The notes: a model not told the origin generated them from the letters alone. Shown: positions 3,365-21,460, counted from the first letter of the stretch. The stretch: 64,000 nucleotides of DNA from Escherichia coli (GCF_003790525.1 NZ_CP033635.1), one strand, 5' to 3'. Program-made: numbers and translations.

Positions 3365-3558
3365 GATCACCGTAATATTGCCGGATGGTGACGATTACGC
3401 GCGATTCGGCAATAATACGTTACAGTGTCACGTTTTTTTATCTCTTAAAGCACGCACTGCTTTTGCGGCTGGCCTCTTTTGCCGCAAAATAGTCGCCCGT
3501 GTTTCATTGCCCATTTCTGCTCATGCATCATCTACACATCTATCCGGATCTGAGCACT

Positions 3559-4815
3559 ATGTTCCGCCGTCTGCTTATCGCAACAGTCGTCGGTATTCTT
3601 GCGGCCTTTGCCGTTGCCGGGTTTCGTCATGCAATGCTGCTACTGGAGTGGTTGTTCCTCAATAATGACTCCGGCAGTCTGGTCAATGCAGCGACAAATC
3701 TTTCCCCATGGCGACGGTTGCTAACTCCGGCGCTCGGCGGACTGGCGGCGGGTTTGTTGCTGATGGGCTGGCAGAAATTTACCCAGCAACGCCCTCATGC
3801 GCCGACCGATTACATGGAAGCGTTGCAAACCGATGGTCAGTTCGATTACGCAGCAAGCCTGGTTAAATCGCTTGCCTCTCTGCTGGTAGTAACCAGCGGC
3901 AGTGCAATTGGTCGCGAAGGTGCGATGATTCTTTTAGCTGCCCTTGCCGCCTCCTGTTTTGCCCAACGTTTTACGCCACGCCAGGAGTGGAAATTATGGA
4001 TCGCCTGTGGAGCTGCGGCGGGAATGGCTGCGGCCTATCGAGCCCCGCTTGCTGGCAGTTTATTTATAGCCGAAGTGCTGTTTGGCACTATGATGTTGGC
4101 CTCTCTCGGCCCGGTGATTATTTCCGCCGTCGTGGCGTTGCTGGTTAGCAATCTGATTAATCATAGCGACGCGTTACTCTACAGCGTACAACTCTCAGTG
4201 ACGGTTCAGGCTCGTGACTATGCGCTGATTATCAGTACAGGTGTGCTGGCAGGTCTGTGCGGACCACTGTTGTTAACGTTAATGAACGCCTGTCATCGTG
4301 GATTTGTAAGTCTCAAACTTGCGCCGCCCTGGCAACTGGCACTGGGCGGGTTGATCGTGGGTCTGCTTTCCCTGTTCACACCTGCAGTGTGGGGCAACGG
4401 CTATAGCACCGTACAATCCTTTTTAACCGCCCCGCCACTGTTAATGATCATTGCCGGGATCTTCCTCTGTAAACTGTTTGCCGTGCTGGCGAGTAGTGGT
4501 TCTGGCGCGCCCGGTGGTGTCTTTACACCGACGCTATTTATCGGTCTTGCCATTGGCATGTTGTATGGTCGTAGCCTGGGATTATGGTTCCCTGATGGCG
4601 AAGAAATTACGCTTTTACTCGGATTGACCGGGATGGCGACACTATTGGCGGCAACCACGCACGCGCCGATTATGTCGACGTTGATGATATGTGAAATGAC
4701 CGGGGAGTATCAGCTACTCCCCGGTTTATTGATTGCCTGCGTAATTGCGTCGGTAATTTCGCGGACGTTACACCGTGACTCTATCTACCGCCAGCACACT
4801 GCGAAGCATAGCTAA
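3559..4815 (+). CDS. clcB: ClC-type voltage-gated chloride channel/H+-Cl- antiporter
   Basis: 418-aa polytopic membrane protein from [15 protein letters not shown]...; start chosen at the internal ATG consistent with K-12 ClcB. Confidence 0.85.
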
Positions 4816-5463
4816 GCGGATGTATTGCCCCAGTTCACGCTGTTCGGCGCGCGGCAGATAAGGCAGTTCACCAATGAGCGGTGCCGGAAGTTTTTTACCG
4901 AGCACATCAATGATTTCCGCATAATGCGCAAGTCCTGGGTTGATTCGGTTAGCCACCCAGCCAATGAGCGGCAGCCCGTCGTTGGCAATCGCCTGAGCTG
5001 TTAGCAGTGCATGGTTAATGCAACCTTCCTGAATACCGACAACCATCAACACCGGCAGTTGTTCCTGCACCACCCATTCAGAGAGCGGACGCAAATCATT
5101 CATCAGACTGCGCCAGCCGCCAGTCCCTTCTACCACGACATGATCGACTTTATCGGTCAGGTTTGCCAGGCCGTTTGAAATGAGGGTGTAATTGATTGGG
5201 CAACTGTGCGCCACGCTACTTTCTTCTTCGCTTAACGCGATAGGATTAACTGCTTCATAAGGCAGTTCGATGGTTGAAACACTCTGCAACACCAGGGCAT
5301 CTTTATTACGCAGCCCTTCGGGTGTCTCTTTGCTCCCCTTCGCTACGGGTTTATATCCCGCAACCGTTTTTCCCTGGGAGGCTAACGCTTGTAGCAATGC
5401 GCGGGAAACCACCGTTTTCCCTACAGAAGTGTCTGTACCGGTAATAAAGAAACGCTTCAGCAT
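4768..5463 (-). CDS. ynfK: dethiobiotin synthetase paralog (BioD2)
   Basis: 231 aa from [17 protein letters not shown] (P-loop); 3' end overlaps clcB 3' end by 48 bp (convergent). Confidence 0.88.
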
Positions 5464-5587
5464 CACTAACTCCACCGTTATGCTTCACAAATATAAACCA
5501 GGAAAATAATTAACCTTGAAAGTCTAAGTTATGCTTTCCTGGCCCAAATTGAGATAGCGCAAATTTTGGTAGAACAGTTAAAAAATG

Positions 5588-6808
5588 TTAACCCTGCAAC
5601 AGACGAATCAACAAAGAACCGTTATACATCGCGTCTTTTACTAGCGCAGCCCCTGCCATCGTACCCTGGTTAGAAAATTGAGTACTCTCAACGCTAATGT
5701 GCTGACTATACGCAGGAAGGGCCTGCTGACGGATGCTGTCCGAGATGACCGGGAAGAGGATATCTGCCGCTTTACTTAACGGTGAGCCAATCAGTATTTT
5801 TTGTGGGTTAAATAAATTCACCATGATGGCAAGAATGCGCCCGACATGCGCGCCCACCCCGGTAATGATGTCTTTTGCCAGTAGATCGCCGCGCAATGCC
5901 GCCTGACACAATGAGTCCACGGTTAACGGCTGTCCATGTAACATCGAGCTCATGGATTGATTGAGACGCAGCTGTGCCAGCTCAAGAATACTGTCCACAC
6001 TGGCGATGGTTTCGAGGCAGCCGTGATTCCCGCAATAACAGCGTTTCCCATACGGGTCGACCTGCGTGTGACCTATTTCCACGAGGCTACTGCTGCCGGC
6101 GTGTAGCAGATGACCATCGGTAATGACGCCCGCCCCCACGTTGTGATCGATAACCACCTGAATCACATCGCGCGCCCCGCGTGAGGCACCAAACAAGGCC
6201 TCTGCCATCGTCCATGCGCTGATATCATGCTGGATATAAACCGGTACGCCGGTATGCTGCTCCAGCGCCTCGCCGAGCGGCATCTCTTTTACATCCTCGT
6301 AGAACGGCATGCGATGTACAATGCCATTTTCCGTATCAATAATTCCCGGCAAGGTTATGGCAATCGAAGTTAGACGCTCAAGTTTTTTCTGGTGGCGGAT
6401 AAAAAACTGATCGATATGGGAAATGATACGATCCAGCAATGGTGAGTCATCTTTTAACGCCAGTTCCTGCGCCTCCTCCACCACCAGTTTGCTGCTCAGA
6501 TCGCGCAGAGCAAGGAAAATCTCCCCGCGACTAATGCGCAGAGAAAGATAGTGCCAGGCTTCAGTTTCAACCACCAGCCCCACCGCCGGACGGCCACGGT
6601 TCCCCGCTTCTTTGATTTCCAGCTCTTGCACCAGGTGTGCTTCGAGCATCTCACGGACAATTTTAGTGATACTGGCAGGAGCCAGTTGCGCCAGACGGGA
6701 AAGATCGATACGCGAGACTGGACCAAGCTGATCAATCAGGCGATATACCGCGCCCGCGTTGGTCTGCTTTATTTGATCAATGTGCCCAGGCTGGTTTTCA
6801 GCAACCAC
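5588..6808 (-). CDS. mlc: ROK-family global repressor Mlc (DgsA)
   Basis: 406-aa ORF, GTG start, N-terminal HTH plus ROK sugar-kinase-like fold with Cys/His zinc motif (CYCGNHGC). Confidence 0.9.
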   Translation of the reverse strand: MVAENQPGHIDQIKQTNAGAVYRLIDQLGPVSRIDLSRLAQLAPASITKIVREMLEAHLVQELEIKEAGNRGRPAVGLVVETEAWHYLSLRISRGEIFLALRDLSSKLVVEEAQELALKDDSPLLDRIISHIDQFFIRHQKKLERLTSIAITLPGIIDTENGIVHRMPFYEDVKEMPLGEALEQHTGVPVYIQHDISAWTMAEALFGASRGARDVIQVVIDHNVGAGVITDGHLLHAGSSSLVEIGHTQVDPYGKRCYCGNHGCLETIASVDSILELAQLRLNQSMSSMLHGQPLTVDSLCQAALRGDLLAKDIITGVGAHVGRILAIMVNLFNPQKILIGSPLSKAADILFPVISDSIRQQALPAYSQHISVESTQFSNQGTMAGAALVKDAMYNGSLLIRLLQG

Positions 6809-6942
6809 CGCATACTCCCTATATTTTCGCGCTCCGAAATAATCTGTAGGCTATGGTGAAGCACTTCAATACGTGTCGTCAAATTTTTACTTAGGCATGT
6901 GATTAACAGCACATTTTTCGGGCTTTTTCGCTGAAATTTCCC

Positions 6943-7836
6943 TCACCTGAGAGCATTCAGCAGATGAATACGAAAGTTTCGCGCAGCTGGACTTTGTTCA
7001 TGATGTTTCGGCCAGACCAACCACATTTCAGAAACCGCATCCTCTTCAGCAATCGGCACCCAGCGCATTTCGTTGAGCTGAACACGTTTAAATGACGCAG
7101 GCAAAATTGAAACGCCCAGACCAGCGGAAACCAGACCGATGATGGTCATTGCCTCACCCACCTCCTGAGTGATGACGGGCGTCAAATGGTAACGTCGCAT
7201 CAGTCCGAGAATATCGTCATACAGCCCTGTCCCGACGTGCGGATCAAAAAAGACAAAGGGTTCTTTCGCCAGTTCAGCCAGCGTTACACTCGGGTTATTT
7301 GCCAGGGGATGATCGTGCGGGATCATCGCCATAAGCGGTTCATGGACGATGACTGCGTGTTCAAGCGTCTCCGGTAACGCTGTGTTACGCAGCAATCCCA
7401 TATCCAGCGTTCCTTCAATGAGCGGAGCGATTTGCTCGCGAGTGTTCATTTCGCGGGTTTGTAAATGGACATCGGGATAATCACGGCGAAACAGCGATAA
7501 CGTATCAGACACCGCCCGAATAAAAGGAGCGGACGAAGTAAAACCAATACGCAACTCCCCCGCTTCACCCTGATGCAGTCTTTCAGCGCGAGCGGCAGCG
7601 TCATCCACCATAGACAGGATTTGCCGACTATCTGCAAGAAACTGTTTTCCTGCTGCCGTCAGAAATACACTGCGATTGGTTCGTGCCAGCAGTCGGGCAC
7701 CAATTTGTTGCTCCAGCGCCTGAATCTGCTGGCTTAGCGGCGGTTGCGAAATATTCAGGCGGGCAGCGGCGCGCCCGAAATGCAGCTCTTCTGCAACCGC
7801 AACAAAGTAACGCAGATGACGAAGTTCAATATTCAT
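6943..7836 (-). CDS. ynfL: LysR-family transcriptional regulator
   Basis: 297 aa, N-terminal LysR HTH (MNIELRHLRYFVAVAEELHFGRAA...); divergent from ynfM. Confidence 0.85.
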   Translation of the reverse strand: MNIELRHLRYFVAVAEELHFGRAAARLNISQPPLSQQIQALEQQIGARLLARTNRSVFLTAAGKQFLADSRQILSMVDDAAARAERLHQGEAGELRIGFTSSAPFIRAVSDTLSLFRRDYPDVHLQTREMNTREQIAPLIEGTLDMGLLRNTALPETLEHAVIVHEPLMAMIPHDHPLANNPSVTLAELAKEPFVFFDPHVGTGLYDDILGLMRRYHLTPVITQEVGEAMTIIGLVSAGLGVSILPASFKRVQLNEMRWVPIAEEDAVSEMWLVWPKHHEQSPAARNFRIHLLNALR

Positions 7837-7942
7837 ATTTAAAACATCTTATTTGAGATTATTAATATATTAGACAGAACAATTCGATTTTCCTAATCTA
7901 TCCATAAGCCTGATCCACAGGCATATTTAGCAAGGATTTCAA

Positions 7943-9196
7943 GTGAGCCGTACTACAACTGTTGATGGCGCTCCGGCAAGCGACACTGACAAGCAAAGCA
8001 TTTCTCAGCCAAATCAATTTATTAAACGCGGTACGCCGCAATTTATGCGCGTCACCCTGGCGCTGTTCTCTGCCGGACTGGCAACCTTCGCACTTCTCTA
8101 TTGTGTGCAACCTATCCTTCCGGTGCTTTCGCAGGAGTTTGGCTTAACGCCCGCGAACAGTAGTATTTCACTGTCCATTTCCACGGCGATGTTGGCTATC
8201 GGTTTGCTGTTTACTGGCCCGTTATCCGATGCCATTGGTCGCAAACCAGTGATGGTCACGGCGCTACTGTTGGCCTCCATTTGTACGTTACTTTCGACAA
8301 TGATGACCAGCTGGCACGGCATTTTGATTATGCGCGCCTTGATTGGGCTTTCGTTAAGTGGCGTAGCAGCTGTTGGCATGACTTATCTTAGCGAGGAAAT
8401 CCACCCCAGTTTCGTGGCCTTTTCGATGGGGTTGTATATCAGCGGCAACTCAATTGGCGGCATGAGCGGACGCTTAATTAGCGGTGTCTTCACGGACTTT
8501 TTCAACTGGCGAATTGCGCTGGCGGCAATCGGTTGTGTCGCGCTGGCCTCGGCGTTAATGTTCTGGAAAATCCTCCCTGAATCACGCCATTTTCGCCCGA
8601 CTTCGCTGCGACCTAAGACGTTGTTTATCAACTTTCGTCTGCACTGGCGTGACCGGGGATTACCGTTATTGTTCGCAGAAGGCTTTTTGCTGATGGGGTC
8701 GTTCGTCACGCTGTTTAATTACATCGGCTATCGGTTGATGCTCTCCCCCTGGCATGTCAGTCAGGCTGTGGTTGGCTTATTATCGCTGGCCTATTTGACC
8801 GGTACATGGAGCTCACCCAAAGCCGGAACCATGACCACCCGCTATGGGCGCGGTCCGGTGATGTTGTTTTCGACGGGGGTTATGCTGTTTGGTTTACTGA
8901 TGACCTTATTCAGCTCGCTGTGGCTGATCTTTGCCGGAATGTTACTCTTCTCAGCCGGATTCTTCGCAGCCCACTCCGTTGCCAGCAGCTGGATCGGCCC
9001 CCGCGCAAAACGCGCTAAAGGCCAGGCCTCCTCGCTGTATCTGTTCAGTTACTATCTGGGGTCGAGTATTGCCGGGACGCTGGGTGGTGTTTTCTGGCAT
9101 AACTATGGCTGGAACGGCGTCGGCGCATTTATTGCTCTGATGCTGGTCATTGCTCTGCTGGTCGGGACGCGTTTGCATCATCGTCTGCACGCCTGA
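7943..9196 (+). CDS. ynfM: MFS transporter
   Basis: 417 aa, about 12 predicted TM segments; divergent from ynfL. Confidence 0.85.
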   Translation: MSRTTTVDGAPASDTDKQSISQPNQFIKRGTPQFMRVTLALFSAGLATFALLYCVQPILPVLSQEFGLTPANSSISLSISTAMLAIGLLFTGPLSDAIGRKPVMVTALLLASICTLLSTMMTSWHGILIMRALIGLSLSGVAAVGMTYLSEEIHPSFVAFSMGLYISGNSIGGMSGRLISGVFTDFFNWRIALAAIGCVALASALMFWKILPESRHFRPTSLRPKTLFINFRLHWRDRGLPLLFAEGFLLMGSFVTLFNYIGYRLMLSPWHVSQAVVGLLSLAYLTGTWSSPKAGTMTTRYGRGPVMLFSTGVMLFGLLMTLFSSLWLIFAGMLLFSAGFFAAHSVASSWIGPRAKRAKGQASSLYLFSYYLGSSIAGTLGGVFWHNYGWNGVGAFIALMLVIALLVGTRLHHRLHA

Positions 9197-9620
9197 AAAA
9201 ATAAGTCCGGACTGAGGTAAATACCCGTCCGGACTTATTGCCTGCTCAAACCAACGTTAATAGCCATCCTAAAATAGACGAAGCGCCAGCCAATTCCCGC
9301 AGCGCATCTAGCGTCATCAGGATTATAAGTACCCAAATAAACGGATTCATTTTGCTGTGTGTCATTTATTACTGATGCGCAGTTATTCTACCGCTTTGTG
9401 GGTAGTAAAATAGTTAACCCGATCAAGACTACTATTATTGGTAGCTAAATTTCCCTTAAGTCACAATACGTTATTATCAACGCTGTAATTTATTCAGCGT
9501 TTGTACATATCGTTACACGCTGAAACCAACCACTCACGGAAGTCTGCCATTCCCAGGGATATAGTTATTTCAACGGCCCCGCAGTGGGGTTAAATGAAAA
9601 AACAAATTGAGGGTATGACA

Positions 9621-9929
9621 ATGAAAAAAGTATTAGCTCTGGTTGTTGCCGCTGCTATGGGTCTGTCTTCTGCCGCCTTTGCTGCAGAAACTGCGACCAC
9701 ACCTGCTCCGACTGCGACGACCACCAAAGCAGCGCCGGCGAAAACTACACATCATAAAAAACAGCATAAAGCAGCACCTGCCCAGAAAGCGCAGGCGGCT
9801 AAAAAGCATCATAAAAATGCGAAAGCTGAACAGAAAGCTCCTGAACAAAAAGCGCAGGCAGCGAAGAAACACGCCAAGAAACACAGCCATCAGCAACCGG
9901 CAAAACCTGCTGCACAACCCGCAGCGTAA
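9621..9929 (+). CDS. asr: acid shock protein Asr (periplasmic, Lys/Ala/His-rich, signal peptide)
   Basis: 102 aa from [21 protein letters not shown]..., low-complexity [14 protein letters not shown] repeats. Confidence 0.9.
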
Positions 9930-10021
9930 GTTTTCAACAGTAATGCTGGCGCGCCCCCTCGCGCCTGAAAATTACGGTGCTAAGCGGTTAACGTTTAGCA
10001 CCGCCTTTAGCGGAGGGTAGT

Positions 10022-10105
10022 ATGGTGGGCCGTTATCGCTTTGAGTTCATTCTTATCATCCTTATTTTATGCGCACTGATTGCCGCCCGTTTTTATCTTT
10101 CCTGA
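10022..10105 (+). CDS. ydgU: small hydrophobic protein (27 aa)
   Basis: ATG at 10022, 27 codons (MVGRYRFEFILIILILCALIAARFYLS); position between asr and ydgD as in K-12. Too short for the ORF track. Confidence 0.5.
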   Translation: MVGRYRFEFILIILILCALIAARFYLS

Positions 10106-10204
10106 TCGTAGTTATCTGATTTTACTCCCACTTTCATCCCGTCCCGTCTATAGTATTTATGAGGGTTTGCTTTTAATAATCATAATTACCCACCAGAGTG
10201 TGAT

Positions 10205-11026
10205 ATGCGTACAACCATTGCTGTAGTGTTGGGTGCAATTAGTTTGACGTCTGCTTTTGTGTTTGCAGATAAACCAGACGTTGCCAAATCGGCAAACGAT
10301 GAGGTCAGCACCCTGTTTTTTGGTCATGATGATCGTGTGCCAGTAAATGACACGACCCAATCACCGTGGGATGCGGTTGGGCAACTGGAAACGGCCAGCG
10401 GCAATTTATGTACGGCTACGCTGATTGCACCCAATCTGGCATTAACGGCAGGACACTGTTTATTGACGCCGCCAAAGGGTAAAGCCGATAAAGCGGTAGC
10501 GCTGCGTTTCGTGTCAAATAAAGGTCTTTGGCGCTATGAGATCCACGACATAGAAGGCCGCGTTGACCCGACACTAGGAAAGCGGTTAAAAGCAGATGGG
10601 GATGGCTGGATTGTACCTCCCGCAGCTGCGCCGTGGGACTTCGGTTTGATTGTGCTACGTAATCCCCCTTCTGGCATTACACCGTTGCCGTTATTTGAGG
10701 GAGATAAAGCCGCGCTTACCGCCGCATTAAAAGCAGCTGGTCGTAAAGTGACTCAGGCGGGCTACCCTGAAGATCATCTCGATACGTTGTACAGTCATCA
10801 AAACTGTGAAGTGACTGGCTGGGCGCAAACGTCGGTGATGTCGCATCAGTGCGATACCTTGCCGGGAGACAGCGGTTCGCCTCTGATGTTGCATACCGAT
10901 GACGGCTGGCAATTAATTGGGGTACAAAGCTCGGCTCCTGCCGCGAAAGATCGCTGGCGCGCCGATAACCGGGCCATTTCTGTTACCGGTATTCGCGACA
11001 AGCTGGATCAACTGTCGCAAAAATAA
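10205..11026 (+). CDS. ydgD: secreted trypsin-like serine protease family protein
   Basis: 273 aa with signal peptide, TAGHC and GDSGSP serine-protease motifs. Confidence 0.85.
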
Positions 11027-11064
11027 TGTTCAAACGCTGCCCGACAGTGCGGGCAGCGTGTTCA

Positions 11065-11394
11065 TCAGGCAAGTTTCACCATGATCATTCCAGCCAACAG
11101 CAAGACCAGGCCAATCCAGCCTTTACGATTTAACCGTTGACCAAACAAGATCCAACCTGCGGCTAACGTGGCGGCAATACCAAACCCGCCCCACAATGCA
11201 TAAGCGACAGACAAGTCGATCCCTTTAACGGCCTGAGAAAGCGCACTAAAGGCAGCCAGCACCGCCGCCAGGGAGAGCAAGCCAAATATTTTGCGACGAA
11301 AGCCGTCAGAAAATTTCAAAAAGACGTTAGCAACGATTTCCAGCACGATTGCCAATGCCAGCCAGGCGGCGTGAACCCATTCAAACTGCGCCAT
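11065..11394 (-). CDS. mdtI: SMR-family spermidine export protein subunit MdtI
   Basis: 109 aa, 4-TM small multidrug resistance fold; overlaps mdtJ 3' end. Confidence 0.88.
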
Positions 11395-11746
11395 GGTTCA
11401 CCTCCAGTTCAGGTTTACGCGCTTTACGAGTACCTGATTTGATCAACACAATCCCGGCGACCAGGGTGGTTAACCCGGCAATTTTCATCAGCGATAAACT
11501 TTCGTCGAATAACAAAACGCTAAACAAGGTAATAAATAAAATACCGATACCTTCCCACAGCGCATAAGCCACGCCTAAGGCGATCTTTTTAACGGCGAAA
11601 GAGAGAAATATATACGACAGAGAAATCATCACCAGCATTAAAATAAAGCCGCCATTTCCCTCACTGACGCTCGCCCATTTCATAGACAGCGTACCGGTAA
11701 TTTCTGTAGCAATAGCCAGACCTAATAAAATCCAATAAATATACAT
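11381..11746 (-). CDS. mdtJ: SMR-family spermidine export protein subunit MdtJ
   Basis: 121 aa, SMR fold, directly upstream of and overlapping mdtI. Confidence 0.88.
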
Positions 11747-12157
11747 TGTCCTTCTCCTGCAAGAGAATTATTTTAATTTTCGCTTAATTCAGCGAAACCA
11801 AAGTAAAGTGGTCAAGCCCCGCGCATAGCGCAAGCTTAAGCAGGAGAAAGGACTAAAGCGCGTTGCGCCAGTGCTGCTCACCTACGAGCAAGATAGTGGA
11901 TGAGGTACGAAGATGGGTAAATGTAGAAAATAACGTCCTGAACAAATTGTCCATAATATTACAATTATCCGCAGTGTTGCTTCTCGTCATCGCGGATGAT
12001 AATTGTCCTCGGTAGTTGAACACGCCTGATTTGTATCATAGCTTAAGAATTAACTCAAAATATTTTCACTTCTTTACCTGAGCGGTTTGATTTTCGTTAT
12101 GATGACGGAGCGAAAAAGACATTATTATTAGCAAAGGAAGAAAAAACGGGGACAAGC

Positions 12158-12294
12158 ATGGCAAAGCCGATCATCACGCTCAATGGCCTAAAAATCGTCA
12201 TTATGTTGGGAATGCTGGTCATTATTCTCTGCGGTATCCGTTTTGCCGCCGAGATCATCGTGCCGTTTATTCTCGCATTATTTATTGCTGTTAT
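12158..12294 (+). pseudogene. tqsA: 5' fragment of tqsA (AI-2 exporter), first ~46 codons; reading frame then runs into element DNA and stops after 7 foreign codons
   Basis: ATG at 12158 encodes [45 protein letters not shown]; the remainder of the gene resumes in frame at 23729. Confidence 0.85.
12286..12294. repeat. attL core (direct repeat 'tgctgttat')
   Basis: Identical 9-mer at 23720-23728; chromosomal tqsA sequence on the left, element-specific sequence on the right. Confidence 0.7.
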
Positions 12295-12365
12295 ATATAA
12301 CTTATTTCGCTTAACTAATTGATTTAATTAAATAATTTGCACTACAAAAAGTGCCAAAAATCGCA

Positions 12366-12391
12366 AATTAACTACACCATTAACTACACCG
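12366..12391. repeat. 26-bp element-end repeat 'aattaactacaccattaactacaccg' (tandem 'ttaactacacc'), candidate integrase arm-type site, left end
   Basis: Exact 26-bp copy at 23567-23592 next to the int start; both copies in direct orientation just inside the element ends. Confidence 0.6.
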
Positions 12392-13466
12392 TTCGGCGCA
12401 CTGTATGAAACAACGTGGAACAAATAGACACAAGCGGCAGGCTATACCGTTATCATTTTTCAGCTATCCGTCATGAAGCTGGTGGATGATCACGGATAAC
12501 CAGGCATCTACAGCGCCTTAAAAAGCTGAACCCGACAAACATTTCTGCTTATCGGGTCCGATCGCTCTTTCTACTCGTGGCAGATGAGTTTACTAGGAAG
12601 GGGGGAACATTGTATCAGGCTATCCCCTTTCTGTGCTGATTCGGCTGGTGAATGATCTACTTGGGGCACTACACTTTTCGGATAGTGCGGGTATCCGGTT
12701 TTCTGCCTCATCGAATTTTAAGCCTTCTGACGGCCTGTATATCATTTCCTGTGGAGTTGCCGCCCTGATAGCGAATACTGCGGCAGCATGTGATTTACCC
12801 CCCGTTCTGTTGATGTTTGATGTGGCTGGTTGATGTGCTGCCATGTTTTCCGCCAATGGTGGAAAAGCCCACCAGCGCAACGCAGGACGCATAAAACCAT
12901 TGCGATGACTCTGGACGCAAAACCACGTTTAACGATGTTTTGCACTGAACCAGAATACTGTTCGTTTTTGTCTCGATGTCCGTACGTATTACGTCCGCAC
13001 CTAATCCGGCATCATGCCCACCAGCGTAACGCATTTTTTTAATTTCGTGGCTGTGCGTCCACCAGCTACGCCGGAATGGGGTATTCCGTTTCAACGGAAC
13101 AGGTATGACGAACATAATCGCACCTTCTCCCGAAAACGGTGCGACCTGCATCATCGAAATGGTGATTCAGCTACTCGGCGATTTTCACCATTCAGAATCT
13201 GGCGGGTGAGTTATCCAGCTTCCACCAATGGGGGATTCTGGAACAATCAACGGGTTACGCCTTATCAGCAAAAAAGCACATCAACTGTAAAGGAAATCGT
13301 TATGGTTGCTGGTGGGCTGCGTCACCATCATGGTGATGATGCTGTCCAGTCAGCCGGAACGGTTGAACAGGGTGGCTATGGGTCACTCTGTTGTGCGTTA
13401 TTTGCGTGATCCTGGTACGGGGTGACTATCTTTCAGATAGTCGGTTGCCTGGTTACACGAAAAAAT

Positions 13467-13775
13467 TTACTTCCTGCGTTTATCCTGCTTTGTATGCCCG
13501 TGCTGAATGCCCCGCAGTGGATCTTCTTTTTTCAGGTCGATCCCCATGTCCGTTAGTGTTTTTGTGGCGGCGGTTCTTATGGCACAAATCAGGTCTCTTT
13601 CCGGTTCCCGGGTTATGGTTGCCTTCCGGATGCATGCCGTTCGTCGTTCCGTTACATACTGACGCGCTTCATCACTTGCCGCCTGTTTCAGTAACTCACC
13701 CCAGCGATTAGCCGCCCGTCGCCATAAACCTTTCGCTTCCAGTTCTTCCGCTTTGTCATCATGCACCATAAGCAT
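13467..13775 (-). CDS. PerC-family-like putative transcriptional activator (copy 2)
   Basis: N-terminal MVHDDKAEELEAKGLWRRAANRWGEL resembles PerC/Pch activators (recalled) and is a paralog of the 17352-17624 ORF; start chosen at an internal Met. Confidence 0.45.
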   Translation of the reverse strand: MLMVHDDKAEELEAKGLWRRAANRWGELLKQAASDEARQYVTERRTACIRKATITREPERDLICAIRTAATKTLTDMGIDLKKEDPLRGIQHGHTKQDKRRK

Positions 13776-13883
13776 AATCCCATTGATACCTGTTAACTCT
13801 GAATGGTTGGTTTCTGTTCTTTTGATAATTTCCCGCATAGCTTATTGTATGACAGTACTGTCCCACAATAAGGAGTTGCACGC

Positions 13884-14174
13884 ATGAGAATGACTAGGCA
13901 CAAAAAACAGATTCTTGAACTCTACAAACCTGAGTATCGCGATTGGGTGCGGGTGGAGGCCGGAGATCCGCCTTTTGATGTTCGTGGTGTGACAGTGCTG
14001 CTCTATGGTTCCGAATATCGGCGATATCACATAGAGGCAACACGAAGGACGCTAAACGCTATGGTTCGTGATAAGTTGCTGGAGCGTGTGAAAGTCCGTG
14101 AGCCACGTTTTGATGTGCGTATTGGTGGCGATGGTGCGCATTGCACGGTAATCCGCTATGGCCTGGTAAGGTAA
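13884..14174 (+). CDS. hypothetical protein (96 aa), only plus-strand gene in the left half of the element
   Basis: ORF with ATG start; internal duplicated motif PPFDVRGV / PRFDVRIGG; followed by the palindrome 'cagaatgtaaatttacattctg'. No family recognised. Confidence 0.4.
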   Translation: MRMTRHKKQILELYKPEYRDWVRVEAGDPPFDVRGVTVLLYGSEYRRYHIEATRRTLNAMVRDKLLERVKVREPRFDVRIGGDGAHCTVIRYGLVR

Positions 14175-14276
14175 GCCATCGGGTAAATCAGATGATTAAA
14201 TCACCAGAATGTAAATTTACATTCTGCCAGCCACCAGCTACCCTCCTCAAAATTGAGGACCCTTTTTATCAACTGG

Positions 14277-14558
14277 TTACCGCCGCAACCGTTCCGGCTT
14301 CTTCCACTGATAAGTGTTTTTCGCGCTCTCCTGATACATCGCCACGCGTCGACGGTATGCCAGCAACTCTAGTACTCTGATTCGTATGTCGCGCATATCC
14401 ACGCCGTTAAGCTCAATACCATCACGGCGCATTACATCAGCAACAACACGCACATAATTTTCGGCGGTCACGCTGTCCGGCTGCGTGGCCTGTTCGTCAT
14501 GCTGCTGGCTGATTCCGGTAACGCGGCGGATTAATCCCAGTAGTTCGACTTCTGTCAT
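14277..14558 (-). CDS. hypothetical protein (~94 aa) immediately downstream of the cos/terS region
   Basis: ORF-track frame 14277..14756; start moved to the internal Met (MTEVELLGL...) so that it does not overlap the cos-like sequence. Function unknown. Confidence 0.4.
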   Translation of the reverse strand: MTEVELLGLIRRVTGISQQHDEQATQPDSVTAENYVRVVADVMRRDGIELNGVDMRDIRIRVLELLAYRRRVAMYQESAKNTYQWKKPERLRR

Positions 14559-14591
14559 TGTGCCCCCATCGCTCTGATAGTCTGGTGTCGT

Positions 14592-14655
14592 CGGGTCCTT
14601 TCCGGCATGTGGACCCGTTACGGGGCGTCGACCTCGCGCGTTTTCACTATTTATG
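14592..14655 (+). other. lambda-like cos site, copy A (cosN plus flanking sequence)
   Basis: 'cgggtcctttccgg...gttacggggcgtcgacctcgcgcgttttcactatttatgaaaattttt' closely parallels the phage lambda cos junction as I recall it ('...acgggtcctttccggtgatccgacaggttacg|gggcggcgacctcgcgggttttcgctatttatgaaaattttccgg'); the 12-mer gggcgtcgacct at 14623-14634 differs from the lambda cohesive end at one base. Confidence 0.75.
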
Positions 14656-14671
14656 AAAATTTTTCGGGATC

Positions 14672-14770
14672 CATGTCCGGTTTCTCTGCAAGTTAACCAT
14701 ATGAAAAATATAAAAACATGCTTTCCATGAACCGGACATGCGCAAAAAACAGACACTAAAACCGGACATC
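14672..14770. promoter_or_regulatory. cosB-like array: three 'ccggacat' repeats (one inverted, two direct) with an AT-rich spacer, candidate binding sites for the element's Nu1-like protein
   Basis: 'catgtccgg' at 14672-14680, 'accggacatg' at 14731-14740, 'accggacatc' at 14761-14770; located on the cosB side of cos copy A, where lambda has R3-I1-R2-R1. Confidence 0.5.
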
Positions 14771-14837
14771 GAACCAGTTAACCGAAAGTGTGCACAAATC
14801 ACATTCATTGCTGCGAGTGATTAACAAGTTATCGGCT

Positions 14838-15272
14838 TTACTGTTCTGTATCGGCTGATTGCTCCATGCTGGCACGGCGAACGCTTACGGCATGACGCCA
14901 CCCAGCCAGAAAGCCAGCCATTTTATTTCGTGCCTTGCTCACATCTTCCGGTGAATAGCCGTAAATATGCAAACCTTCATCAAATCGATGTTCTGTTTCT
15001 TCACTGGAGTACTCGTCACGCTCAGATGAAAGCAGCCTCGCAAACATAATTTTTTCCAGCGCACTGGTTTCTACGTGATATCCGATGGTCTGAAGATGGC
15101 TTTTACCTGAATACCAAAGCAATGTATGCCCGATGTGATAACCGCCAGACTTTCCGCGATCCGCATTAAGATACGGCATCCCCTGTTTGGTCCATGCGCG
15201 AATAGTGGTTCTGTTAACCTTGAAATGTTCAGCTATTTCCTGCTGACTTACAAAACAAGCTTTATCAATCAT
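14838..15272 (-). CDS. terminase small subunit Nu1-like DNA-binding protein (possible packaging-specificity/redirecting factor)
   Basis: N-terminus QQEIAEHFKVNRTTIRAWTKQGMPYL parallels lambda Nu1 KKQLADIFGASIRTIQNWQEQGMPVL (winged HTH); C-terminal half unlike Nu1; flanked by cos-like sites. Confidence 0.65.
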   Translation of the reverse strand: MIDKACFVSQQEIAEHFKVNRTTIRAWTKQGMPYLNADRGKSGGYHIGHTLLWYSGKSHLQTIGYHVETSALEKIMFARLLSSERDEYSSEETEHRFDEGLHIYGYSPEDVSKARNKMAGFLAGWRHAVSVRRASMEQSADTEQ

Positions 15273-15339
15273 AATGTTACCTTAACTGCATGGTTAAATA
15301 TCAATCAAGTGGTGGTGGTGTCACCTTCACGGAAAAACG

Positions 15340-15403
15340 TCATAAATAGCGAAAACGTGCGAGGTCGACGCCCCGTAACGGGTCCACATGCCGGAAAGGA
15401 CCC
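15340..15403 (-). other. lambda-like cos site, copy B (inverted copy of A, cosN plus flank, without the 'ccggacat' array)
   Basis: Reverse complement matches copy A at 62 of 64 positions; lies ~70 bp upstream of the Nu1-like gene start on the same strand. Confidence 0.7.
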
Positions 15404-15404
15404 G

Positions 15405-15430
15405 CAAAAAAAGCCGGATTTCTCCGGCCT
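15405..15430 (-). terminator. rho-independent terminator after the head-gene cluster (minus strand)
   Basis: Minus-strand hairpin ggccggagaaatccggcc followed by a T-run; related hairpin motif at 17324-17345. Confidence 0.5.
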
Positions 15431-15502
15431 TGTCTCAGATGGTTTTCAGTATGCGATAGATGTCGCCGTCATCGCCCTGGTTTGTGCCATCGTTCCCCCT
15501 GC

Positions 15503-15838
15503 TTATCGGGCCAGCGGCTGAACGGATACGCCGGAACCCGCAAAGGCGGCGCATTTTTTCGCATCGGTGTCGACGCTCTCAGGCCAGTTAACGGCGGCAA
15601 TATTGAATATCCCCGTCTTGTAACACTGTGCTGATTTCTGCTTTGACGTGTCCACAGGGTACGAGGTCAGATAAACAGCCTTGCCAGATTCCTTACCATC
15701 CCACGCCTTAAACTCGCCATTGTCTGCCAGCATCAGCGGGGTAAATTCCTGAATAACGCCAGCATCAGCGGCAAAATGTACCAGCGTCGTGGATACCTGT
15801 TGGCTGCCTGAAAATAACTCAATGTATGGAGCGTCCAT
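15503..15838 (-). CDS. head decoration protein, lambda gpD-like
   Basis: 111 aa; motifs TPLMLADNGEFKAWDG, YKTGIF, NWPE and KKCAAFAG parallel lambda gpD (TPLMLDTSSRKLVAWDG, YKSGTF, LWPE, KKRTAFAG) as recalled. Confidence 0.7.
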   Translation of the reverse strand: MDAPYIELFSGSQQVSTTLVHFAADAGVIQEFTPLMLADNGEFKAWDGKESGKAVYLTSYPVDTSKQKSAQCYKTGIFNIAAVNWPESVDTDAKKCAAFAGSGVSVQPLAR

Positions 15839-15849
15839 AGAATCCCCCG

Positions 15850-16905
15850 TTAAGCAATTTTGACGGTAACAAATTTGCGAATATCTGCCGGTACAGGCTG
15901 CGGTGCGCTGTGCGTCTGCACGTACTCAATCGCCGGATCGCCGTCCTCAATCCAGTTTTTCGGGTAGTACATGTTTTGCGTTGCGCCCGTTCTTACCGCT
16001 TCCTGATCCATAATCGCACCATATGCCACCAGCCCTTTATTGTTGGTGTTACCCAGGACCAGCAAATCAGGCTCAAGGAAATATTTTTCGGTCCCGTCGC
16101 TGTCAGTGTATTTGCCGGAATAGACGATAAGGGCCAGATCACCAAGATAGCCTTTAAAGCTCACCACTTCGCCCAGGTTTTTACAGGCCAGCTCGGCGGC
16201 GGATTCTGATCCACGGGAAAGATCGTACAGTTCACGGAATTTTTTAAAGCTGCGTAATGTGCGCCATACCTCACCGCCCATAATCATGACGTTGGCGGGG
16301 CAACCTGCCTGATCAGCATAAAGCTCGATGTCATAGATTGGGTCGTGCATGTCTTTATCCTGCTGGGACCATTTTTTACCACTGGCCTGCTGTATGATGC
16401 AGTTTTCCGGTATTTTCCAGTCGATTTCATAGCGTTCTATGCCTTCGCCCTCAATGATGTTTTTTCCGGTCGTTACCGCATTCACCGCCAGCCATTCCAC
16501 GCGCGCCTTAATGGCGTTTATCTGGCGGCGCATGTTGCCAGTAATCAGGCGCATACGGCGGTAAGTTGGATCGTTAAGCTGTGCCGGATCTTCTCCATCC
16601 ATGCGCATGATGGTCTTTGTTGGATCGATTTCGTGCTTTGGCTTCATGTAGCCTGGTTTAATCGTGCTGGTTTCGTACCCTTTATCGCGCTGGACCTGAC
16701 TACCCACCATAGGAGAACAGAACGCTGACATCGTAACCTCTTCAATGTCCAGGGTGTCCAGCATGATGTTTTGGGTGTTGAAGGTCGCCACGTTCGGGAA
16801 AAACAGCGTGGTAAACAGCGGACTAAATTTATATTCCGAAATATCCCCGCGATTCAGGTACGCGAAAAGCTGGTTAGTTGTAAGTGCCTTTGCTTTGCCT
16901 GTCAT
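15850..16905 (-). CDS. major capsid protein, lambda gpE family
   Basis: 351 aa; YKFSPLFTTLFFP and PGYMKPKHEIDP parallel lambda gpE FKFDPLFLRLFF and PGYVKPKHEVNP; similar length to gpE. Confidence 0.75.
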   Translation of the reverse strand: MTGKAKALTTNQLFAYLNRGDISEYKFSPLFTTLFFPNVATFNTQNIMLDTLDIEEVTMSAFCSPMVGSQVQRDKGYETSTIKPGYMKPKHEIDPTKTIMRMDGEDPAQLNDPTYRRMRLITGNMRRQINAIKARVEWLAVNAVTTGKNIIEGEGIERYEIDWKIPENCIIQQASGKKWSQQDKDMHDPIYDIELYADQAGCPANVMIMGGEVWRTLRSFKKFRELYDLSRGSESAAELACKNLGEVVSFKGYLGDLALIVYSGKYTDSDGTEKYFLEPDLLVLGNTNNKGLVAYGAIMDQEAVRTGATQNMYYPKNWIEDGDPAIEYVQTHSAPQPVPADIRKFVTVKIA

Positions 16906-17111
16906 TATTCACCTCCGTGAACCTGATTGATACCCAGCGCCGCACGCAAATAGGTGCGCACCTGCCAGCCTGTTGACGGCTCAACCATCGCCAGCGGATC
17001 AAGTCCTGCCGCAATGCCTGCTTTTACATTCTGCTGGTGGCGTTCCTTGAGCGCCTCCACGATGTCGGGGCTTATGTAGACCGTCACCCCGCCTTTTTTC
17101 TCTTCTGCCAT
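16905..17111 (-). CDS. hypothetical protein (68 aa), first gene of the head cluster
   Basis: ORF with ATG start, stop overlaps the capsid gene start; no family recognised. Confidence 0.4.
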   Translation of the reverse strand: MAEEKKGGVTVYISPDIVEALKERHQQNVKAGIAAGLDPLAMVEPSTGWQVRTYLRAALGINQVHGGE

Positions 17112-17323
17112 AGTCAGAAATTCCTCTTTGACTTAAAAAATCATAACTGGATGTTCATCCAGTCCTGATTATAATCATGATTGCATTTTGCGCAACAATA
17201 TTGAGTTACGTTGCAAATTATGAAATGATTATCCCGATCATGTGTGTCAGTTCACCATAAAAAACCTCGTATACAAAAGCCCCATAAGCCCCCTGTGACC
17301 TTATCGGGCTTTTTTTAGGCGTA

Positions 17324-17345
17324 AAAAAGCCGGATTGCTCCGGCT
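17324..17345 (-). terminator. rho-independent terminator downstream of the PerC-like gene (minus strand)
   Basis: Minus-strand hairpin gccggagcaatccggc followed by TTTTTT. Confidence 0.5.
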
Positions 17346-17351
17346 GTGTGC

Positions 17352-17624
17352 TCACTTCTGCGGGTAGTTGCGCCATATTGCTTTGCCAATACCAGCTATC
17401 CCCATTTGTTTTTCAGTGCGATTAACTGACCTTTTCAGAGCGCCTAAATCATCCGGCGGCTCCGGTGGCCTCTGTGCCTTACGGATACATTCCGCGCGAC
17501 GCATTGCCACCTGTTCGCGCTCCTTGTCTGTCTCCACCAGCCTCATAACTTCACCCCATCGCGCCGCCGCCCTCCGGTAAAAGCCTTTTGCCTCGAGTTC
17601 CTCCGCTATGCGGTCATGTACCAT
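17352..17624 (-). CDS. PerC-family-like putative transcriptional activator (copy 1)
   Basis: MVHDRIAEELEAKGFYRRAAARWGEV...; paralog of the 13467-13775 ORF; start placed at the internal Met just after the ssb stop. Confidence 0.45.
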   Translation of the reverse strand: MVHDRIAEELEAKGFYRRAAARWGEVMRLVETDKEREQVAMRRAECIRKAQRPPEPPDDLGALKRSVNRTEKQMGIAGIGKAIWRNYPQK

Positions 17625-17634
17625 CGTCACCCCC

Positions 17635-18045
17635 TCAGAACGGAATATCATCACCGTAAGGGTCATCGCCTCCCGCTGGTGGCTGATTACCCTGTGTGCC
17701 TGTGGTTTTGCGTCTGTTCCCGCCAGGACGTGCCGCACGGGCACTGATTACGCTGTCTGCAATAACCTGCCAGCCCTGCCGCGTTTCCCCGTTCTGTCCG
17801 GTCCACTGGCTGACCTGCATCGTGCCGGATACGCTGGCAACGTCGCCTTTTTGATGTTTAGCCAGAAAGTCGGCCTGTTTGCCAAATGCGATGACCGATA
17901 ACCATAACGTCGCCTGTCCGTCCTGTGCCTGGCCGCATGGTAAAGATACCGCCATACGCGCCAGCGTCATCGGTGTACCCTTACTGGTCTGTTTTACCTG
18001 CGGGTCGTCCACCAGCCGCCCGTAAGCTGCTATCTGTGCTGTCAT
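17635..18045 (-). CDS. ssb: single-stranded DNA-binding protein (SSB)
   Basis: 136 aa with OB-fold-like core, Gly/Pro/Gln-rich linker and the acidic C-terminal tail ...DDIPF typical of SSB. Confidence 0.7.
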   Translation of the reverse strand: MTAQIAAYGRLVDDPQVKQTSKGTPMTLARMAVSLPCGQAQDGQATLWLSVIAFGKQADFLAKHQKGDVASVSGTMQVSQWTGQNGETRQGWQVIADSVISARAARPGGNRRKTTGTQGNQPPAGGDDPYGDDIPF

Positions 18046-18284
18046 GCTGTCTGCTCTCCGGTTTTAACGTTGATGGTTGTTACCTGTTCTGCTTCGGCAA
18101 TATCCCGCTCTGTCAGCGTGGCAAAGTTTGCCGCCGTCGTTGTCATGAATGCGCTTATCAGTTCGGGATGTGCTTTCGCGTATCCTTCCCCTGTGTTGCG
18201 GTCGATGATTTTTATCGCCACCCTCAGCCAGTGCTCTGTAAGGTCAATGGCGCGGTGATCTGTCTTTTTGTGGCTTACCTTCAT
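18042..18284 (-). CDS. hypothetical protein (80 aa)
   Basis: ORF in the replication module, overlaps ssb start by 4 nt (coupled); no family recognised. Confidence 0.45.
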   Translation of the reverse strand: MKVSHKKTDHRAIDLTEHWLRVAIKIIDRNTGEGYAKAHPELISAFMTTTAANFATLTERDIAEAEQVTTINVKTGEQTA

Positions 18285-18287
18285 GAT

Positions 18288-18656
18288 TTACTCCAGAGTA
18301 CCGCTATTGCTGCTGTCGTTAACCGGATACCAGGCAAATACCATCGATTCACCACAGTGAACAAACTTCTTATCCGGCAGATAAAGGCACTCGCACATTC
18401 CCTCATCAGGACTATGCGGACTCATGCCCAGCTCACTGGTCAGCACGGGTAAGATTTCGCGGCAGGTGTTCCCCGCACCGAAATAATCAACCTCACAAAG
18501 CGCCCATGCAGCAATCGGGCTGTACCATTCCGTGCCGTCGTCGTCTTTGAACTTAGCCCACCAGCCAGGAAGGGCAGTTGATATGCTCAGTGTTTCAATT
18601 TCAGTGTTCATAAATTTACCTTCGGTATTTTGTCCTGCTGTTCGATTTTTATTCAT
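18288..18656 (-). CDS. hypothetical protein (122 aa or shorter)
   Basis: ORF directly downstream of the iteron region; Cys-containing; no family recognised. Confidence 0.45.
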   Translation of the reverse strand: MNKNRTAGQNTEGKFMNTEIETLSISTALPGWWAKFKDDDGTEWYSPIAAWALCEVDYFGAGNTCREILPVLTSELGMSPHSPDEGMCECLYLPDKKFVHCGESMVFAWYPVNDSSNSGTLE

Positions 18657-18860
18657 TGCTCACCATCTCTCACTTTTACTACTCACTTTTTAAAGCGTCT
18701 CGCTTCGTCTCACTTGAGATTTTTGTGTTTTGTATGTGCATGTTTCATAAGTGTTTTTTCACTGCTCACTTTTGAGCATGTATACAGGTGAGAAAGTGAG
18801 TAATTGTGTTAATATTTTGTAAAAACCTCACCATTACTCACTTTTACTACTCACTTTTTA
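18657..18860. repeat. iteron array, candidate replication origin ('ctcactttt' repeated ~7 times, one inverted, around an AT-rich core)
   Basis: Copies at 18669, 18682, 18709 (variant), 18765, 18793 (inverted), 18837 and 18850; 'ctcacttttactactcacttttta' occurs twice; lies immediately 3' of the rep ATPase gene. Confidence 0.6.
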
Positions 18861-20264
18861 CAGTGGTCCTACATCATCACCATCAATGTAAATCACGGCG
18901 TCTTTTTCCAGTTTGGCTAACCATCGCCGCATATTTTTCACGTCATACCCAAGCCGTTTCATGTCATCACGTAACAGCGGGATCGTGCACTTGTCGCCGT
19001 TCTGTGTGCGTGAACGGATGCACCCCCATAGCGCGGTATGGTTTTCCGTCTTGTTGCCTGCCTCCTCGATGCGCTCCAGTTCAGCAGGGGCGCGGGGAAC
19101 GTCAATCACCACCATGGACACAATTTCTTCGCCATCTGTATCGGTGAACACCTCCACGCTTTTAAGGTCGTATGCACTCTCTTTTGGCTCCTCTGCGTCC
19201 TTCATCTTCGTACACGCCGCAACCAGTGCTGTAACGTCTGAATTTTCCCTGCTGATTCGGTACTCTGCATCAAGCGCGGCACGGAATGCACTGGAACCAC
19301 GCGCCCCCTTTGTTTCATCCTTGCCGGAATGGTGAACCACCAGCACCGTGGCCCCTGTGGCCTGCTTTATCGCGTCACACCCCTGGATAAATGCGCCCAT
19401 ATCACGGGAATCATTTTCATCATTCCCACCAAAGCAACGGGCCAGCGTGTCGATCACAATCAGCCGCACATTTTCGCCCGTTCTGCTCTTAACAAGTCCG
19501 GCAGTCCTGATAACCTGCTCCACATAGTCAGGCGATGCAGGGAAAACAGGCGCGTTAATGATGCACAAATCTGTAACCACCTTGTCGTGGGTTATCTCCC
19601 ACGCCTTAACGCGGCGTTTTACGCCCATGCTGCCTTCACCAGCGATATAGATAACCGCACCCTTACTTACCCTGCGGCCTCCCCATGCCATACCTGTGGC
19701 AACATGGCACGACCAGGAAATGGCGAGGAACGATTTATAAGAACCGCTGGCCCCGTAGGTGCTGCATAATGACTCAGCCGGAATAAGCCCCTTAATGACG
19801 TAGCTTTGCTGCGCATCGAATCCCTCAGAACCCCATGAGATGGGAAGTGTGATTTTTCGCTTTCCGCCATTCATGACCAGGCTTTCCCCTCTCTCCCATG
19901 TTTCCCGTAGTCGTGGTAGCTGGTCGCTCCAGTCCTCCAGCAGTTCGAAATTTTCAGAAAGTAGCCGCGCCTCCTGGACTCCGGCGATCGCCAGTTTTGT
20001 GGCAATGGTCAGCATCTGCATATCGTCCAGGTTTCCGGCGCGTATGACCTTTACCCTGTATCGTCCTTCATCAACAATCTGTAAGTTGTCCAGTTCGCTT
20101 AACTGATAACGGCCCAGATAAACCGGAGGGATGGGATCGCCTGCTTTTTTGGCCTGTGCAATCATGTAATGTTCTGCAAAGGAGTGAGCATTATCACCCG
20201 CAAAAATAACCGCCTCAGTGTGTTTATCTTTCGGTAACAGTTTTACGTTCGGTGCAAGTTTCAT
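18858..20264 (-). CDS. replication protein with RecA-like P-loop ATPase domain (RepA/DnaB-like, satellite pri-rep type)
   Basis: 468 aa; Walker A YGASGSYKS, Walker B-like RLIVIDTL, HHSGK motif; C-terminal region possibly DNA-binding; iterons directly downstream. Confidence 0.65.
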   Translation of the reverse strand: MKLAPNVKLLPKDKHTEAVIFAGDNAHSFAEHYMIAQAKKAGDPIPPVYLGRYQLSELDNLQIVDEGRYRVKVIRAGNLDDMQMLTIATKLAIAGVQEARLLSENFELLEDWSDQLPRLRETWERGESLVMNGGKRKITLPISWGSEGFDAQQSYVIKGLIPAESLCSTYGASGSYKSFLAISWSCHVATGMAWGGRRVSKGAVIYIAGEGSMGVKRRVKAWEITHDKVVTDLCIINAPVFPASPDYVEQVIRTAGLVKSRTGENVRLIVIDTLARCFGGNDENDSRDMGAFIQGCDAIKQATGATVLVVHHSGKDETKGARGSSAFRAALDAEYRISRENSDVTALVAACTKMKDAEEPKESAYDLKSVEVFTDTDGEEIVSMVVIDVPRAPAELERIEEAGNKTENHTALWGCIRSRTQNGDKCTIPLLRDDMKRLGYDVKNMRRWLAKLEKDAVIYIDGDDVGPL

Positions 20265-20548: not shown

Positions 20549-20553
20549 GTTTT

Positions 20554-21299: not shown

Positions 21300-21302
21300 T
21301 GT

Positions 21303-21426: not shown

Positions 21427-21460
21427 AGCCCACCAGCAAGCCAGCACACTGATCACATTG

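Follow-up and report, generated by a model that had tools for sequence, protein, structure and literature searches.

A conserved dual-coding overlap at the 3′ ends of Escherichia coli clcB and ynfK, with a clcB-internal hairpin as the probable 3′ end of the ynfK mRNA

Opposite-strand overlaps between the 3′ ends of convergent genes are well documented. For E. coli, 58 convergent overlaps have been counted, and the phase designated 123:321 accounts for 33% of the convergent overlaps of at least 5 nt (Lillo & Krakauer 2007, PMC2174442). Of 116 E. coli genes in such overlaps, the same study found 23 with a predicted rho-independent terminator within the coding sequence (CDS) of the partner. Excludons are defined by mutually exclusive expression, achieved by interference or RNase III, and 165 convergent excludons of MG1655 have been listed from RNA-seq coverage alone, on the basis of detection in at least 50% of 58 transcriptomes; clcB-bidA is among them (PMC12288877, Table 1). 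A further class consists of Rho-terminated E. coli mRNAs, which end at stable, exonuclease-protective stem-loops without U tracts (Dar & Sorek 2018, PMC6061677). Bidirectional or RNAP-collision terminators have also been described (Ju et al. 2019); in the account of them given in bioRxiv 10.1101/2022.10.23.513370, these elements lie between genes and are reportedly Rho-independent.

Here, we analyzed the clcB-ynfK gene pair within a 64,000-nucleotide stretch of Escherichia coli DNA (GCF_003790525.1, NZ_CP033635.1), which we call the window and from whose first base all positions are counted. The two genes overlap tail to tail. The overlap is real, ancient and ordinary, and it is already annotated. 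Taken as a whole, the locus is likely best explained as a dual-coding overlap in which each gene would form its 3′ end inside its partner, with the hairpin described below serving ynfK. The features discussed are as follows.

3559..4815, + strand: clcB CDS, ClC-type Cl-/H+ antiporter, 418 aa with the K-12 start (ORF list and K-12/SMS-3-5 annotation)
4768..5463, - strand: ynfK/bidA CDS, dethiobiotin synthetase paralogue of BioD, 231 aa (ORF list and annotation)
4768..4815, both strands: tail-to-tail dual-coding overlap, 48 nt, phase 123:321 (from the sequence)
4768..4770, - strand: ynfK stop TAA, which is the ClcB Leu404 codon TTA on the + strand (from the sequence)
4813..4815, + strand: clcB stop TAA, which is the YnfK Leu217 codon TTA on the - strand (from the sequence)
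4780..4788, both strands: shared motif bases, ClcB Ser408-Ile409-Tyr410 and YnfK Val226-Asp227-Arg228
4698..4726, both strands: hairpin with a 12-bp perfect stem and a 5-nt loop, on clcB codons Thr381-Gly389 (T-G-E-Y-Q-L-L-P-G)
4690..4767, - strand: putative ynfK 3′ UTR, opposite clcB codons 378-403, extending from the stop codon to slightly beyond the hairpin

A sequence-only reading of this stretch had named the two genes clcB and ynfK and reported a 48-bp convergent overlap between them. The K-12 annotation bears out both gene identities (ynfK is now bidA), and the stops at 4813-4815 (+) and 4768-4770 (-) give exactly the overlap it described. That reading had proposed a comparison with K-12, where we found the identical 48 nt: the MG1655 RefSeq record places clcB at 1665315..1666571 (+) and bidA (b1593, formerly ynfK) at 1666524..1667219 (-). 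The annotation of strain SMS-3-5 has the same overlap as K-12. The supposition in the sequence-only reading that this is a standard feature of the locus was also right, given the agreement with K-12 and conservation across the Enterobacteriaceae, and no in-frame clcB stop occurs earlier in the window, as it had stated. Alternative clcB starts lie upstream, at 3523 (RefSeq PGAP, 430 aa) and at 3499 (longest ORF).

Between 4660 and 4830 the window differs from K-12 at 1 base, E. coli SMS-3-5 and no fewer than 14 other strains match 2.2 kb here at 100% identity, and the region is found in approximately 5,410 of 5,426 complete E. coli genomes. Beyond this local region, the window lacks the ISVsa5 of SMS-3-5 and carries an extra element of ~11 kb. 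Both overlapping ORFs are genuine protein-coding genes, as judged from structure and Pfam matches and from conservation in 63 species. ClcB matches ClcA structures with an E value of 1e-26 over residues 5-402, its homologues match the Pfam family Voltage_CLC, and YnfK matches the E. coli BioD structure 1a82 with an E value of 5e-65.

The overlap holds 15 sense codons and a stop for each gene, corresponding to ClcB residues 404-418 and YnfK residues 217-231. The two frames are directly opposed, so that codon position 1 of one gene faces position 3 of the other. Because of this exact opposition (123:321), the TAA of either gene lies across from a TTA leucine codon in the other. Like other convergent overlaps (PMC2174442), the pair joins two opposite-strand 3′ ends, and the stop-mutation model proposed for such pairs fits the drifting clcB stop described below. 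However, clcB-ynfK exceeds the usual 4-nt TTAA type, and its bases encode motifs of both proteins, which locks at least 27 nt of overlap across the family.

We surveyed the arrangement with a YnfK scan, taking one genome per species, which gave 80 Enterobacteriaceae loci, 63 of them with an intact clcB. Overlap lengths were measured by scanning from an in-frame anchor in each locus, with the following result.

27 nt: 3 loci of 63 (L060, L004, L065)
39 nt: 1 locus of 63
45 nt: 15 loci of 63
48 nt: 33 loci of 63
66 nt: 11 loci of 63

Every one of the 63 clcB-containing species thus has an overlap of at least 27 nt. The position of the ynfK stop is fixed, with YnfK 231 aa long in 80/80 loci, and it is the clcB stop alone that drifts among species, always downstream of the conserved S-I-Y. 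In Salmonella and Citrobacter, for example, the clcB stop is TGA and lies one codon earlier, opposite a YnfK serine codon, TCA. Since only the clcB stop moves (27-66 nt), there is nothing special about a length of 48 nt. An open antisense frame is also easily had in this phase, in which antisense stops arise only from TTA, CTA and TCA codons. By our own rough estimate from typical E. coli usage, rather than a computed value, these three account for ~2-3% of codons, so that 15 codons without an antisense stop are nothing unusual by chance. The conservation of the overlap, unlike its length, is beyond chance.

The reason for this conservation lies in bases 4780-4788, which read TCT ATC TAC (ClcB S-I-Y) on one strand and GTA GAT AGA (YnfK V-D-R) on the other. 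BioD, whose full structure has been solved, ends where YnfK residue 220 aligns, and an 11-residue C-terminal tail is therefore particular to YnfK. This tail, with its conserved D-R-V, has the same length in 13 species without clcB. Conversely, ClcB homologues that are 45-49% identical and lie away from ynfK end 2-4 residues past S-I-Y or a close variant. Each motif is thus conserved independently, meaning that both proteins separately keep bases 4780-4788, and the arrangement is fixed in the Enterobacteriaceae because conserved C-terminal residues of the two proteins share the same bases.

Codon choice bears the mark of this double load. Among nine-codon windows, the overlap ranks first in ynfK for synonymous constraint (deficit -0.65 bit, ~4 sd) and second in clcB. 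Elsewhere in ynfK no window is unusually constrained, the next best being -0.34 at the start codon. YnfK Arg228 is AGA or CGA, both rare arginine codons in enterobacteria, in 55/63 loci with clcB and CGC or CGT in 9/13 loci without it. Val226 is GTA in 57/63 loci with clcB, and codon usage at YnfK 226, 228 and 231 shifts when clcB is absent. The ynfK stop follows suit: it is TAA or TAG in 63/63 loci with clcB, because the antisense codon must read leucine (TTA/CTA), and TGA in 9/13 loci without clcB. The overlap is truly dual-coding and constrains both genes, and the constraint relaxes where clcB has been lost.

As there is no spacer between clcB and ynfK, the 3′-end signals of each gene must sit within its partner. 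The overlap itself is not structured as RNA (z +0.6 and +1.5), and the + strand fold of 4800-4920, where a clcB 3′-end structure within ynfK was looked for, is no better than shuffles (z +1.2). On the other side lies the hairpin at 4698-4726, whose near edge is 42 nt past the ynfK stop when read along the - strand. Its folding energy is -21.5 to -21.7 kcal/mol, with z -5 to -6 against shuffled sequences on either strand; on the ynfK strand it is a GC-rich stem-loop of 11-12 bp with dG -21.5 kcal/mol and z -6.1. When the same peptide was resampled with synonymous codons, 0.015% of trials equaled this stability (P ~1.5e-4).

The hairpin is also the top-ranked synonymously constrained window of clcB, and its stem was found in all 63 loci with clcB, with equal mean stability on the two strands. 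It is built from the codons GGG, CTA, CTC and CCC, which each have a usage of 0.04-0.15 and vary little or not at all between genera. All 61 sequences compared have ACC for Thr381 and CCC for Pro388, against 1.4-1.75 bits of variation at the other Thr and Pro codons of clcB. One stem pair shows compensatory change: 30 sequences have CG and 15 have GC, the switch combining a Glu/Gln change with a synonymous Leu change. Perhaps one or two independent double changes underlie this covariation. Escherichia, Citrobacter and Buttiauxella have G-C at this pair; in Klebsiella, Kluyvera and Enterobacter it is C-G. RNAalifold independently recovered the stem in ynfK sense. Three distant ClcB homologues that do not adjoin ynfK, all from GC-rich genomes, do not have the hairpin.

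Two other identities for this element were tried and discarded. A REP-type repeat is ruled out, as the hairpin is single-copy, occurring at a median of 1 place per genome, and the HusR (YnfL) box CnGnnnAnnTnnnCnG (PMC12844172), compared by eye, does not fit. An Rfam scan of 4400-5600 at E values up to 10 returned sub-threshold chance matches of at most 24.5 bits, against gathering thresholds of at least 55.

Whether the hairpin belongs to ynfK or to clcB is best judged from loci that have lost clcB. Trabulsiella, Lelliottia and one C. amalonaticus keep the hairpin arms right after the ynfK stop with the rest of clcB gone, the surviving arms being CCGGGCAG/CTGCCCGG or CCGGGGAG/CTCCCCGG. In the C. 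amalonaticus locus (L017), the hairpin is followed by 7 U in ynfK sense and is thereby a canonical terminator. Four clcB pseudogene remnants retain the stem as their flanks decay, and in other lineages without clcB an unrelated canonical terminator occupies this position. Survival of the hairpin after clcB loss ties it to ynfK and not to clcB. It is the probable 3′-end hairpin of the ynfK mRNA. In E. coli, the ynfK-sense tail past the hairpin is CAUUUCACA, which is not a proper U tract; likewise, the tail taken for scoring an intrinsic terminator on this strand, CAUUUCACAUAU, is not U-rich. The sequence of this tail is fixed by the ClcB Cys-Glu-Met codons.

Published transcriptome data fit an end of the ynfK message within clcB. 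A Rho termination region is listed with its center at K-12 position 1666514 (-), which corresponds to window position 4758, and was classed as "primary ynfK / antisense clcB" (Adams et al., PMC7815308). Across the ynfK stop, read counts drop from 85 to 11 without treatment and from 292 to 159 under bicyclomycin (BCM), and the Rho score for the ynfK 3′ region is 4.2 (p 1.5e-6), computed from 800-nt windows and therefore locating termination only roughly (PMC7815308 supplementary file 2). Upon Rho inhibition, ynfK-strand RNA reads into clcB antisense (same file). The curated Term-seq tables of Adams et al. hold no 3′ end within ~2 kb of the locus, probably because ynfK is anaerobic and FNR-activated. 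In ynfK-sense RNA, the C/G ratio is 1.05-1.64 over ~270 nt past the ynfK stop, a skew that is only mild.

Together, these observations suggest how the ynfK message could end. Ribosomes would leave the ynfK mRNA at its stop (4768), and the untranslated RNA beyond it, antisense to clcB, would be terminated largely by Rho. The hairpin at 4698-4726 would then act as a protective 3′ stem-loop that sets and stabilizes the end of the ynfK mRNA, and it may also be a weak intrinsic terminator for ynfK. For clcB, no conserved structure was found within ynfK, and its transcripts would most likely be ended by Rho or by colliding polymerases. That ribosome release, Rho termination in clcB antisense and a hairpin-defined, stabilized ynfK 3′ end act jointly is, on balance, probable. 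This scheme resembles the Rho terminators with a protective stem-loop (PMC6061677) in its BCM-sensitive drop on the ynfK strand and in a stable stem-loop without a U tract 42 nt downstream; unlike them, the ynfK stem-loop is co-encoded within the CDS of a convergent gene. With the terminators embedded in convergent partners (PMC2174442) it shares a strong hairpin within clcB past the ynfK stop. However, the U tract on the ynfK strand (CAUUUCACA) is poor, and the element is canonical only in the clcB-less L017. With the elements of Ju et al. (as cited in bioRxiv 10.1101/2022.10.23.513370), the locus shares convergent genes and a palindromic hairpin that folds equally well on either strand; in contrast to them, the clcB hairpin is intragenic, and the termination region on the ynfK strand is BCM-sensitive.

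The hairpin could instead serve clcB, by pausing the ribosome or RNAP during synthesis of the last transmembrane helix or as a translation-dependent attenuator ~90 nt before the stop. In clcB sense, the E. coli hairpin is followed by UUUAUUGAUUG, and a terminator scan requiring at least 5 T in 8 bases called a site on the clcB strand alone and none on the - strand. The hairpin is equally stable on both strands, and it sits on conserved T-G-x-Y...L-P-G codons that align with the ClcA D-N-Y-Q-L segment. A test of G-U pairs against A-C mismatches is ambiguous as to strand and confounded by coding constraints: the outer and apical pairs favor clcB sense, and the 9-bp core pairs better in ynfK sense (97% versus 89%). 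However, conservation does not extend to the U-rich tail in clcB sense, where the codons for Leu390 and Leu391 vary freely at 1.3-1.4 bits. The hairpin has also been kept after deletion or pseudogenization of clcB, once gaining a U tract on the ynfK strand, and it is missing from the distant ClcB homologues, including one that still has T-G-Q-Y..L-P-G. A role in clcB is quite unlikely. Nor do we put much weight on both features being neutral leftovers, with the overlap derived from a harmless stop loss and the hairpin a functionless by-product of peptide motif and codon bias. The variation in overlap length fits stop-codon drift, published models of such pairs invoke stop mutation (PMC2174442), the 15-codon open antisense frame is expected by chance, and the T-G...P-G peptide is self-complementary at the codon level (ACC GGG / CCC GGT). 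Such an account is fair for the origin of the overlap and its 48-nt length but not for the hairpin, where the resampling probability, the near-invariance of low-usage codons across genera, the compensatory change in the stem and the persistence of the stem in remnants as their flanks decay all oppose it. As an explanation of the locus as a whole, we regard it as very unlikely.

Returning to ynfK and clcB as a dual-coding pair with a ynfK 3′ end inside clcB, the two mRNAs would be complementary over at least 48 nt, and over ~118 nt if the ynfK RNA reaches the hairpin. Such complementarity makes interference or RNase III cleavage possible and need not be the reason for the overlap. Additionally, ynfK is reported to be directly activated by FNR (PMC3688515), so its anaerobic transcription could in principle interfere with that of clcB. 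Coupling of expression by transcriptional interference, which the sequence-only reading had also raised, is plausible; our literature search found no report of clcB and ynfK being expressed reciprocally, of their RNAs being processed by RNase III or of interference between them. A stronger proposal is that the overlap exists in order to make clcB and ynfK expression mutually exclusive, by collision or by RNase III acting on double-stranded RNA. Besides the FNR activation of ynfK, this could draw on the listing of the pair as a convergent excludon (PMC12288877), on the ynfK-strand RNA antisense to clcB, which increases under Rho inhibition (PMC7815308), on the long conservation of the overlap and on the finding that hairpins determine where polymerases collide between convergent genes (bioRxiv 10.1101/2022.10.23.513370). 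As in an excludon, the clcB and ynfK transcripts overlap unavoidably if both CDSs are fully transcribed. However, pairs with overlapping CDSs score as excludons automatically once both genes are transcribed, and the definition demands mutually exclusive expression, whereas clcB-ynfK was listed from coverage alone. The conservation is fully explained by the C-terminal motifs of both proteins on the same bases, and the length of the overlap drifts from 27 to 66 nt. Furthermore, the 13 lineages without clcB keep ynfK unchanged at 231 aa, which makes ynfK independent of its partner. An overlap maintained for exclusive expression is thus unlikely. A more speculative idea is that the hairpin, on its conserved T-G-x-Y...L-P-G codons, is a bidirectional control point where anaerobic, FNR-driven transcription of ynfK meets that of clcB and the clcB mRNA is truncated ~90 nt before its stop by collision or by RNase III. 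This is a long shot; if it held, cells would express either the Cl-/H+ antiporter or the anaerobic dethiobiotin synthetase but not both, and the overlap would be conserved for regulation and not for protein constraints only.

The overlap itself was already known, being present in the reference annotation and catalogued as a transcriptionally overlapping pair. The hairpin appears to be unannotated so far and adds an instance to a known type of element; the K-12 RefSeq annotation at the locus lists coding sequences only. The locus offers a worked example of dual coding, in which 9 bases carry two motifs and restrict both the Arg228 codon and the choice of ynfK stop, and, if the hairpin acts as proposed, of an RNA 3′-end signal held in synonymous sites of a neighboring gene. 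Although the practical relevance of the overlap and the hairpin is modest, recoding or deleting clcB, including by a Keio-type knockout, would remove or alter the probable ynfK 3′-end hairpin and the last 15 ynfK codons, and phenotypes of clcB mutants could therefore partly reflect ynfK. Elsewhere in the window, fumC/tus and ydgC/folM form two 4-nt TTAA overlaps.

The main result of the follow-up is a hairpin that was absent from the sequence-only reading, which concerned the 48-nt overlap between the convergent 3' ends of clcB and ynfK.

4698-4726, both strands: perfect hairpin with a 12-bp stem, within clcB and 42 nt beyond the ynfK stop.

The hairpin is kept across Enterobacteriaceae, with synonymous-site constraint, and it persists in lineages that have lost clcB. 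We also observed that an insertion sequence adjoins this terminator-like hairpin in E. coli AST85 (NZ_AP043644.1), whose ynfK/clcB locus is designated L083.

L083 2797-3505, equivalent to window position about 4730: IS200/IS605-family element with a 152-aa tnpA.

The element interrupts clcB directly 3' of the hairpin, after ...CCCCGGTTTATTG. In this strain, clcB is truncated, and both the hairpin and ynfK are undamaged.

A genomic-SELEX study places a weak HusR peak (intensity 72) inside ynfK, between clcB and mlc, and does not list a HusR box for it (PMC12844172). By coordinate conversion, the peak falls at approximately window position 4890 (K-12 about 1,666,646). HusR is the LysR regulator YnfL, and its own gene lies two genes away. 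The hairpin at 4698-4726 was rejected as a candidate HusR box, as the sequences do not match.

A palindrome and two further convergent overlaps are present in the window.

24617-24657: GC-rich palindrome GACGGCCTCCGCAGAGGCCGTC, between pntB and a tqsA fragment.
31375-31378: ydgC/folM convergent coding-sequence overlap, 4-nt TTAA type.
34865-34868: fumC/tus convergent coding-sequence overlap, 4-nt TTAA type.

The palindrome is typical of a bidirectional intergenic terminator and sits in an intergenic spacer, whereas the clcB/ynfK junction has no spacer. Both 4-nt overlaps are of the minimal TTAA type, with the stop codons of the two genes interlocked. The published MG1655 list of excludons, opposite-strand neighbors with overlapping transcripts, includes both of these pairs as well (PMC12288877).

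Annotations disagree on the start of clcB (window 3499-3561), and called lengths of its homologs range from 381 to 459 aa among database entries.

3499, plus strand: GTG start of the longest ORF, 438 aa.
3523, plus strand: start in the RefSeq PGAP annotation of SMS-3-5, 430 aa.
3559, plus strand: ATG start in the K-12 annotation, 418 aa.

Finally, the tqsA gene is split by an integrated element.

About 12,300-23,720 (approximate): integrated element of ~11 kb.

Going by the annotation of the near-identical strain CM2, the element encodes a tyrosine integrase, an Icd-like protein, a RepA-family helicase, an SSB, two PerC-family regulators, a major capsid protein, and a head-decoration protein. 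It looks like a phage satellite or a capsid-encoding island. At least 80% of window 5600-25600 is covered in only 5 of 5,426 E. coli genomes.
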